10,167 nucleotides of DNA from a virus. The notes beneath the pieces were generated by a model. The model was not told the DNA's origin and made no database searches. It worked only from the letters and a program-made list of their open reading frames with translations. The position numbers and the translations under genes are program-made. The stretch lies in the UHGV virus genome UHGV-1332412; one strand, given 5' to 3'. Shown here piece by piece: positions 5,535-5,885 of this stretch (positions are counted from its first letter, which is position 1; every line of letters starts with the position of its first letter).

Positions 5535-5885
5535 TTAAGGTTGTGATTCCGGAGGAGTCTTCAGAGAACCAGTAATTCTTCCCGGTAGCTTTCCTTTGTA
5601 GGTTATCCATACATTCTGCGCCTCTAAAATTACGGGGCGCTTTTCCGGCGACTGCTCATCCCCTTCACATAACCCGGCAGCAACATCCAGGAAGACCTGT
5701 CTGATGCTCCTTCTGGCTGCTGCCTCATAAAACTCCAGCGCGGCACCTTCAACACGGTCCAGCGAGATGTCCAGGTCAAAAATTTCACCGTCAAAGCGTT
5801 TTTTGTCCCGTAACGCTAAAGTTACCGTAACTTTATTCTCAAAATTGCGGATCCCTTTCACAATCAGTTCATAGTTTTGAGTCAT
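5535..5885 (-). CDS. Hypothetical soluble acidic protein (116 aa) embedded in the lysis cassette; possibly YdfR-like (DUF1327), which occupies the same holin-endolysin slot in the K-12 Qin prophage (by recall)
   Basis: Single ATG at 5885..5883 with a strong SD (GGGGAGAG) 7 nt upstream, starting 4 nt after the holin stop. No other Met in the ORF, no TM segment. Same strand as the holin and endolysin. Confidence 0.6.
   Translation of the reverse strand: MTQNYELIVKGIRNFENKVTVTLALRDKKRFDGEIFDLDISLDRVEGAALEFYEAAARRSIRQVFLDVAAGLCEGDEQSPEKRPVILEAQNVWITYKGKLPGRITGSLKTPPESQP

Follow-up and report, generated by a model that had tools for sequence, protein, structure and literature searches.

The closest described relative of the gene analyzed here is ydfR (b1555) of the Qin cryptic prophage of Escherichia coli K-12, which belongs to the same family, DUF1327, and occupies the same slot (essQ-ydfR-rrrQ-rzpQ) behind the same 4-nt gap. 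Searches of the literature on DUF1327 and ydfR yielded a single functional paper (RNA Biol 2026; PMC13232886), the gene appearing otherwise in screen lists. With Rng, a paralogue of RNase E, as bait, a genomic two-hybrid library yielded ydfR codons 1–72, which also interact with Rne, and full-length YdfR was two-hybrid positive only with Rne1-597 (PMC13232886). Like RapZ, the host adaptor for GlmZ decay that served as the positive control in that study, YdfR binds Rne constructs containing residues 1–597; unlike RapZ, it gave no two-hybrid signal with Rne1-415 or Rne1-498 (PMC13232886). Chromosomally encoded Rne1-598-FLAG co-elutes with Strep-YdfR from lysates, DNase-resistant nucleic acid is about 30-fold more abundant in the Strep-YdfR eluate than in negative controls, and overproduction of YdfR changed few transcripts and left growth unaffected (PMC13232886). 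The nuclease-treated in-vitro pull-down was done for YegJ and not for YdfR (PMC13232886), which makes an RNA bridge possible, so that the RNase E interaction, observed with overproduced K-12 YdfR in untreated material, could be RNA-bridged or non-physiological. Among the screens, a ydfR deletion was flagged for envelope leakiness in K-12 (supplement of PMC3879167), an effect that the deletion cassette may have exerted through polarity on rrrQ, the endolysin gene that follows. Other lists record ydfR with a 3-fold rise in streptomycin MIC and in an in-vitro sigma-S transcription set.

Phage biology offers further points of comparison. Phage T4 Srd is a small protein that binds the catalytic N-terminal half of RNase E. 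The S21-71 antiholin and the P1 LydB-type antiholins, which regulate lysis timing in pinholin/SAR systems, either are membrane proteins or depend on an alternative start within the holin gene itself. Classical morons, passenger genes lodged among those of the late operon, each have a promoter and a terminator and are expressed in the prophage state. Here we analyze a DUF1327 gene in a stretch of 10,167 nt from the virus genome UHGV-1332412, the whole of which is referred to as the window. The reading we favor, to which we assign a probability of roughly 0.4, is that this gene may encode a late-made accessory protein that binds RNase E and/or RNA and modulates late RNA handling, and that it is not a lysis regulator.

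Results

Position of the gene within the lysis cassette

The window is the late region of a lambdoid prophage, with RusA, Q, four tRNA genes, the lysis cassette, Bor/Iss, and the lambda-type genes Nu1, A and W in order of transcription. The lysis cassette comprises the following features:

5890..6105, minus strand: class II holin of the phage-21 (pinholin) type; 71 aa; MKSM dual start (Pfam PF04971, E 1.4e-35; hydropathy)
5893..5900, minus strand: Shine-Dalgarno-like GGGGAGAG of the 116-aa ORF (direct sequence reading)
5535..5885, minus strand: 116-aa YdfR/DUF1327-family gene, stop codon included, ATG start (ORF list; Pfam PF07041)
4938..5471, minus strand: lysozyme-type endolysin, 177 aa (Phage_lysozyme PF00959, E 8.1e-24)
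4480..4956, minus strand: Rz spanin (Pfam PF03245, E 9.4e-54)
4539..4721, minus strand: Rz1 lipoprotein gene embedded in Rz (PF06085, E 2.6e-20)

The holin matches Phage_holin_2_1 ('Bacteriophage P21 holin S') and has two hydrophobic segments, and the endolysin displays a SAR-like, Ala/Gly-rich segment at its N-terminus together with the E35/D44/T50 spacing. A preliminary description of this DNA had set the ORF between a pinholin and a SAR endolysin, starting 4 nt past the holin stop behind a strong Shine-Dalgarno sequence, and the ORF list, the Pfam assignments of the neighbors and the sequence itself bear this out. The holin TAA (5892..5890) is followed by TTCA (4 nt) and then by the ATG at 5885..5883, and GGGGAGAG, located within the 3′ end of the holin gene, lies 7 nt from that ATG. 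A holin–ydfR gap of 3–4 nt is common to K-12, YYZ-2008, mEp460, PhiR5_1 and locus L018 (the loci compared carry L numbers). At the other end, a 63-nt spacer (5472..5534) extends from the stop codon of the ORF to the endolysin start, whereas K-12 ydfR overlaps rrrQ by 4 nt (ATGA). The endolysin ATG has no obvious Shine-Dalgarno sequence (..CCTGATAAATATCCATG), and the last 10–28 nt ahead of it are conserved across all loci compared; the spacer RNA folds no better than shuffled sequence does (z 0.24).

A consensus scan of 5471–6105, from the holin start to the endolysin start, returned no sigma-70-like or intrinsic-terminator-like site, which makes co-transcription of the ORF with the lysis genes plausible. 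Since the gene would share their transcript and its translation start lies right behind the holin, its product is expected to be made late in the lytic cycle and to be cytoplasmic. The protein had also been called soluble, acidic and Met-poor. It is soluble by its properties (GRAVY −0.40; maximum 19-residue Kyte-Doolittle mean 0.69), with neither a transmembrane segment nor a signal peptide detected by hydropathy and sequence properties, and it contains one Met; its acidity is only mild (pI 5.55; net charge about −1, from 18 D+E and 17 K+R).

The surroundings show several further features. Tandem tRNA genes (Met-CAT, Lys-TTT, Thr-TGT and Gly-TCC; 6398..6707, minus strand) lie between the Q antiterminator gene and the holin, within the late transcription unit as in Stx phages, although the tRNA set differs. 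A hairpin with a T-run just downstream of Q (6815..6838) has the form of a terminator on both strands and is a tR′-like candidate, and a second one, on the minus strand at 6175..6190, follows the tRNA cluster 70 nt upstream of the holin start. Convergent with Rz/Rz1, on the plus strand at 4107..4448, is a gene for a Bor/Iss-type serum-resistance lipoprotein, annotated iss in near-identical E. coli prophages, which represents a classical moron adjoining the lysis cassette. The window also contains an ORF for a 64-aa basic protein (3598..3792, plus strand), at the place taken by ynfO (DUF3950) in Qin, a 372-aa ORF (7960..9078, minus strand) where related prophages carry their DUF968 gene, and an ORF for a predicted lipoprotein of 130 aa (9583..9975, minus strand).

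A member of the DUF1327/YdfR family

A Pfam search, as the preliminary description had proposed, matched the 116-aa protein to DUF1327 (PF07041) with E 7.5e-43 and 145.1 bits over model positions 1–92 of 93, the gathering threshold of this family being 25 bits. Copies with 100% identity, annotated 'YdfR family protein', occur in phage vB_EcoS-611R1 and in E. coli Ecol_AZ146. The same description had named ydfR/DUF1327 as the occupant of the comparable Qin slot, and the ORF itself turned out to belong to that family: 60 of 74 residues (81%) are identical to K-12 YdfR over residues 1–74, with no similarity beyond. Its remark that the function is unknown is essentially true. Both PHROGs matches of the protein (2091 and 406) are listed as unknown function. 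NCBIfam gave no match for the 116-aa protein, and the PADLOC defense profiles matched no family at E ≤ 0.1 with either this protein or a 183-aa allele. By homology and gene order, the ORF is a catalogued DUF1327/YdfR member at its usual position, and the family is an ordinary, already known one; its modular anatomy, the relatives in tail clusters and the constant convergent partner described below are mildly new.

When 1.84 billion representative proteins were searched exhaustively with a profile, the DUF1327 family proved to be tiny, with only 78 clusters, whose named members are almost all from Escherichia or Shigella. DNA matches to DUF1327 were found at 8,617 places in 4,349 of 5,426 complete E. 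coli genomes (~80%), and the S21-type holin at 16,888 places in 5,166 E. coli genomes. The order class II holin, DUF1327, lysozyme is likewise present in YYZ-2008, mEp460, PhiR5_1, Evi and vB_EcoS-611R1.

The coding sequence has been maintained by selection. Against five diverged homologues (the sixth, mEp460, being nearly identical), dN/dS is 0.20–0.43 for codons 1–72 and 0.30–0.39 for codons 78–111, so that both parts of the gene are under purifying selection at dS of up to ~2.4. On this codon-level evidence the ORF is a real coding gene and not a chance ORF.

A conserved core with exchangeable C-terminal modules

Alignments, structure prediction and substitution rates divide the gene into separate segments:

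5664..5885, minus strand: module A, codons 1–74, conserved DUF1327 core (β-β-β-α) (K-12 YdfR identity, AF2, stand-alone homologues, dN/dS)
5550..5654, minus strand: module B, codons 78–112, EKRPVILEAQNVWITYKGKLPGRITGSLKTPP, interchangeable C-terminal module (alignments, pLDDT, dN/dS, dS contrast)
5496..5549, minus strand: homology break covering the last four codons (ESQP), the stop codon and ~40 nt of spacer (blastn vs PhiR5_1 and L014)

Module A is the counterpart of the K-12 YdfR segment that interacts with RNase E (residues 1–72). Its AF2 model is confident (block pLDDT 77–92), with antiparallel strands at residues 5–14, 18–27 and 34–43 and a helix at 50–73; it was obtained from an alignment of 25 sequences that included distant 72–76-aa homologues, an alignment of 11 sequences giving a pLDDT of only 51. 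Residues 75–116 have pLDDT < 50. The structure prediction that had been suggested for this protein thus yielded a fold for residues 1–74, and no significant counterpart for it was found, since Foldseek returned no match at E ≤ 0.001 against BFVD and PDB and the PDB sequence profile searches gave chance-level matches only. Y53 and E54, invariant in the family, and the near-invariant A57 are present in the 116-aa protein, at the start of the helix, and these positions are (nearly) invariant in homologues down to 23% identity; in the family alignment they are followed by a basic pattern, A-I/K-x-K-A-K/R.

Module B, in contrast to the core, is missing from K-12 YdfR, which past residue 74 is unrelated and carries a 29-residue tail said to be helical, where the prediction for module B is of low confidence. 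It is also found behind other N-terminal modules, as in protein P0150, in which a coiled-coil module precedes it instead of module A. At least five C-terminal architectures follow the core in the family (103, 104, 114/116, 176/183 and 211–263 aa), namely the K-12 type (103 aa), the mEp460 type (104 aa), module B (114/116 aa, including the protein studied here), module B plus a coiled-coil module C (176/183 aa) and longer fusions (211–263 aa). Homology to PhiR5_1 and L014 ends at 5550 and restarts at 5496, and the longer alleles have 478–595 nt between these points, which contain module C and a convergent 86-aa gene. Between the window and YYZ-2008, dS is 1.6 in module A and 0.28 in module B, a difference that indicates a recombination junction near codon 75, inside the gene. 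The working part of the protein is best explained as the 74-residue N-terminal domain, with residues 75–116 as one tail among several that can be swapped. In the database proteins P0072, P0093 and P0184, module A is duplicated in tandem; the first two look like assembly or repeat artifacts, and P0184 (176 aa) has two diverged copies.

Such variability could suggest that the gene is functionless or selfish filler, a recombination remnant in a hypervariable junction that is translated only through its position. The extremely mosaic C-terminus, the truncations, frameshifts and fusions that are frequent in databases, the dispensability of the gene across related phages and the minimal transcriptome effect of YdfR overexpression (PMC13232886) would fit this idea. 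We nevertheless consider it very unlikely, given the purifying selection on both modules, the persistence of Y53, E54 and A57 across distant homologues, the presence of the gene in the large majority of complete E. coli genomes stated above, and the specific interaction reported for the K-12 homologue (PMC13232886).

An optional gene of the late operon

The preliminary description had offered three roles for the ORF: a lysis-timing regulator, an endolysin chaperone or inhibitor, and a cargo gene riding the late transcript; it had proposed co-occurrence analysis as a means of deciding. Phage records with an S21-type holin number 438 and those with DUF1327 number 101, and about three quarters of the holin records are without DUF1327. 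Among 'Stx2a-converting' records, 124 have the S21-type holin and 2 have DUF1327, and in essD-rrrD loci of the DLP12 type the lysozyme directly abuts the holin. The gene is therefore missing from most related cassettes, which is the presence/absence part of the refutation that the description had set, namely absence from most closely related lysis cassettes without phenotype. The association with a particular holin is also loose, as DUF1327 is found beside at least two holin families (PF04971 and PF16080). In addition, stand-alone homologues of 72–76 aa sit in tail-gene clusters, at the M/L, L/K or I/J junction, away from any lysis gene. The J proteins of these tail-context phages are closest to those of Cronobacter, Serratia, Providencia and Proteus phages, at 59–66% identity, and we infer the likely host taxa from the J proteins alone; a tail-type sub-alignment found no match in species-representative genomes. 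Considering gene order across these loci, the common denominator of DUF1327 is the late operon rather than lysis, and of the three roles cargo on the late transcript is the one best supported by the record counts, the two holin families and the tail-cluster homologues. For a lysis-timing regulator or an endolysin chaperone we found no positive evidence.

A regulatory role in lysis deserves consideration all the same, because every E. coli copy lies at the holin/endolysin junction and its tight spacing is conserved, which counts against a non-lysis reading and leaves room for a lysis-related one. Under such a proposal, a cytoplasmic protein made in stoichiometric amounts with the pinholin would tune triggering, for example through the basic cytoplasmic tail of the holin, or would assist or inhibit the SAR endolysin before its export. 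The 3–4-nt spacing is kept in all E. coli loci with an S21-type holin, the next gene downstream in E. coli is always the 177-aa lysozyme, and the ydfR deletion in the leakiness screen (PMC3879167) points the same way, if it is not polar on rrrQ. Against these observations, the holin has its own MKSM dual-start antiholin device, the protein has no membrane segment or export signal, most holin-type records and the DLP12-type loci do without the gene, it occurs with another holin family and in tail clusters devoid of lysis genes, and overproduction of YdfR in K-12 caused no growth defect (PMC13232886). Like the 116-aa ORF, regulators of the S21-71 or LydB type have their coding sequence inside or beside that of the holin and are produced together with it. 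The 116-aa protein differs from them in being soluble and optional, with relatives outside lysis cassettes; it is the product of a separate ORF and not an alternative product of the holin gene, and it lacks the steady co-occurrence with holin and endolysin that an antiholin should show (101 vs 438 records, tail clusters, PF16080). A lysis regulator is hence quite unlikely, and the DUF1327 gene is probably not part of the lysis machinery.

The holin/endolysin location is best explained as a recombination-prone passenger slot, without any mechanistic connection to lysis. Stx phages carry another insertion, the gene ant for an anti-repressor of 190 aa, located between the endolysin and Rz at 4702..5271 in YYZ-2008 (L002) and at 4608..5177 in Stx1_499 (L025), and this insertion between R and Rz is further evidence that these lysis cassettes tolerate passenger genes at every junction.

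Convergent companion genes in relatives

Every stand-alone 72–76-aa homologue examined is followed, within ~12–45 nt downstream, by a convergent ORF. The partners of these stand-alone genes are rev99 (phrog_25324), rev93 (phrog_10490), rev70 and rev182 (phrog_18578), and rev86 (phrog_2572), convergent as well, comes after the long or split alleles of E. coli. The loci in which they occur are:

rev99: L011, L012, L018–L024
rev86: L004, L014–L017
rev93: L009–L010
rev70: L013
rev182: L005–L008

Between L018 (phage Evi, in an E. coli lysis cassette) and L019 (in the tail I/J slot), rev99 is 62% identical, while the adjoining DUF1327 genes are 38% identical. Each of the 9 phage-database records with rev99 or rev86 has it beside DUF1327 (9/9). 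DUF1327 and its convergent ORF may form a mobile module of two genes or mark a hot spot for insertions. The ORF list and comparison with homologues revealed no partner ORF in the window, and a second gene concealed in module B or in the spacer was ruled out, as neither an ORF nor a partner homologue is found there.

These arrangements raise the question of whether the gene of the window is the orphaned half of a two-gene module, in which the DUF1327 domain would work with or against the product or transcript of the convergent gene, the partner having been lost here and the remaining half retaining a partner-independent activity or undergoing slow decay. The convergent ORF behind every stand-alone homologue, rev86 behind the long E. 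coli alleles, the higher conservation of rev99 across slots than of DUF1327 (62% vs 38%), the 9/9 adjacency, and a homology break in the window that falls exactly at the site of module C and rev86 in longer alleles would all be consistent with such a history. We consider it possible but unlikely, since the partner families are mutually unrelated and have no known function in any case, a hot spot for reverse-oriented insertions fits equally well, and most alleles of E. coli and Stx phages, K-12 ydfR included, have no partner yet are under purifying selection.

Discussion

Our preferred reading, an accessory protein acting on late RNA handling, draws on the 81% identity to K-12 YdfR in the very region that was mapped there as interacting with RNase E, from which binding of RNase E or RNA by the 116-aa protein may be inferred. 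The gene belongs to a family found in temperate Enterobacterales phages and is an accessory of the late operon. Under this model, module A would bind the N-terminal half of host RNase E, which comprises the catalytic and membrane-anchor parts, and/or RNA. RNA turnover or handling would then be modulated late in infection, and holin, endolysin and spanin would not be its targets.

In such a role the 116-aa protein would resemble T4 Srd, another phage product that targets the N-terminal half of RNase E. It has no sequence or fold relationship to either RapZ or Srd, and it is expected late rather than early. A further likeness, to the double-stranded RNA-binding domain (dsRBD; α-β-β-β-α), lies in the three-stranded antiparallel sheet followed by a helix with conserved basic residues in its first turns, and K-12 YdfR co-purifies with RNA (PMC13232886). 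We rejected identity with the dsRBD, given that the N-terminal helix is missing and there is no Pfam dsrm match; the resemblance is that of a generic β3-α arrangement.

With lambdoid morons such as bor and lom, the gene shares an optional and patchy occurrence at late-operon junctions, in lysis cassettes as well as tail clusters, and a G+C content slightly below that of its neighbors (47% vs 50–52%). It differs from classical morons in that the consensus scan found no promoter or terminator of its own flanking it and in that it is co-oriented with the holin gene and tightly abuts it.

A more elaborate version, which we regard as a highly improbable speculation, would make the DUF1327 core a phage RapZ-like adaptor, made late, that hands specific RNA to RNase E. 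The ancestral RNA would have been the transcript of the convergent partner, expressed in the lysogen, so that a function of the prophage state would be switched off at the onset of lysis, and alleles without a partner would have been re-targeted.

For annotation, these results imply that the gene should not be named a lysis gene from its position; it is better described as an optional, mosaic passenger of the late operon. About four-fifths of the E. coli genomes sequenced contain DUF1327/YdfR genes, as do many Shiga-toxin phages. Phage modulators of host RNA decay have so far come mainly from virulent phages. If the lead toward RNase E or RNA is true, such a modulator, expressed late, would also be part of the gene set of temperate lambdoid phages.
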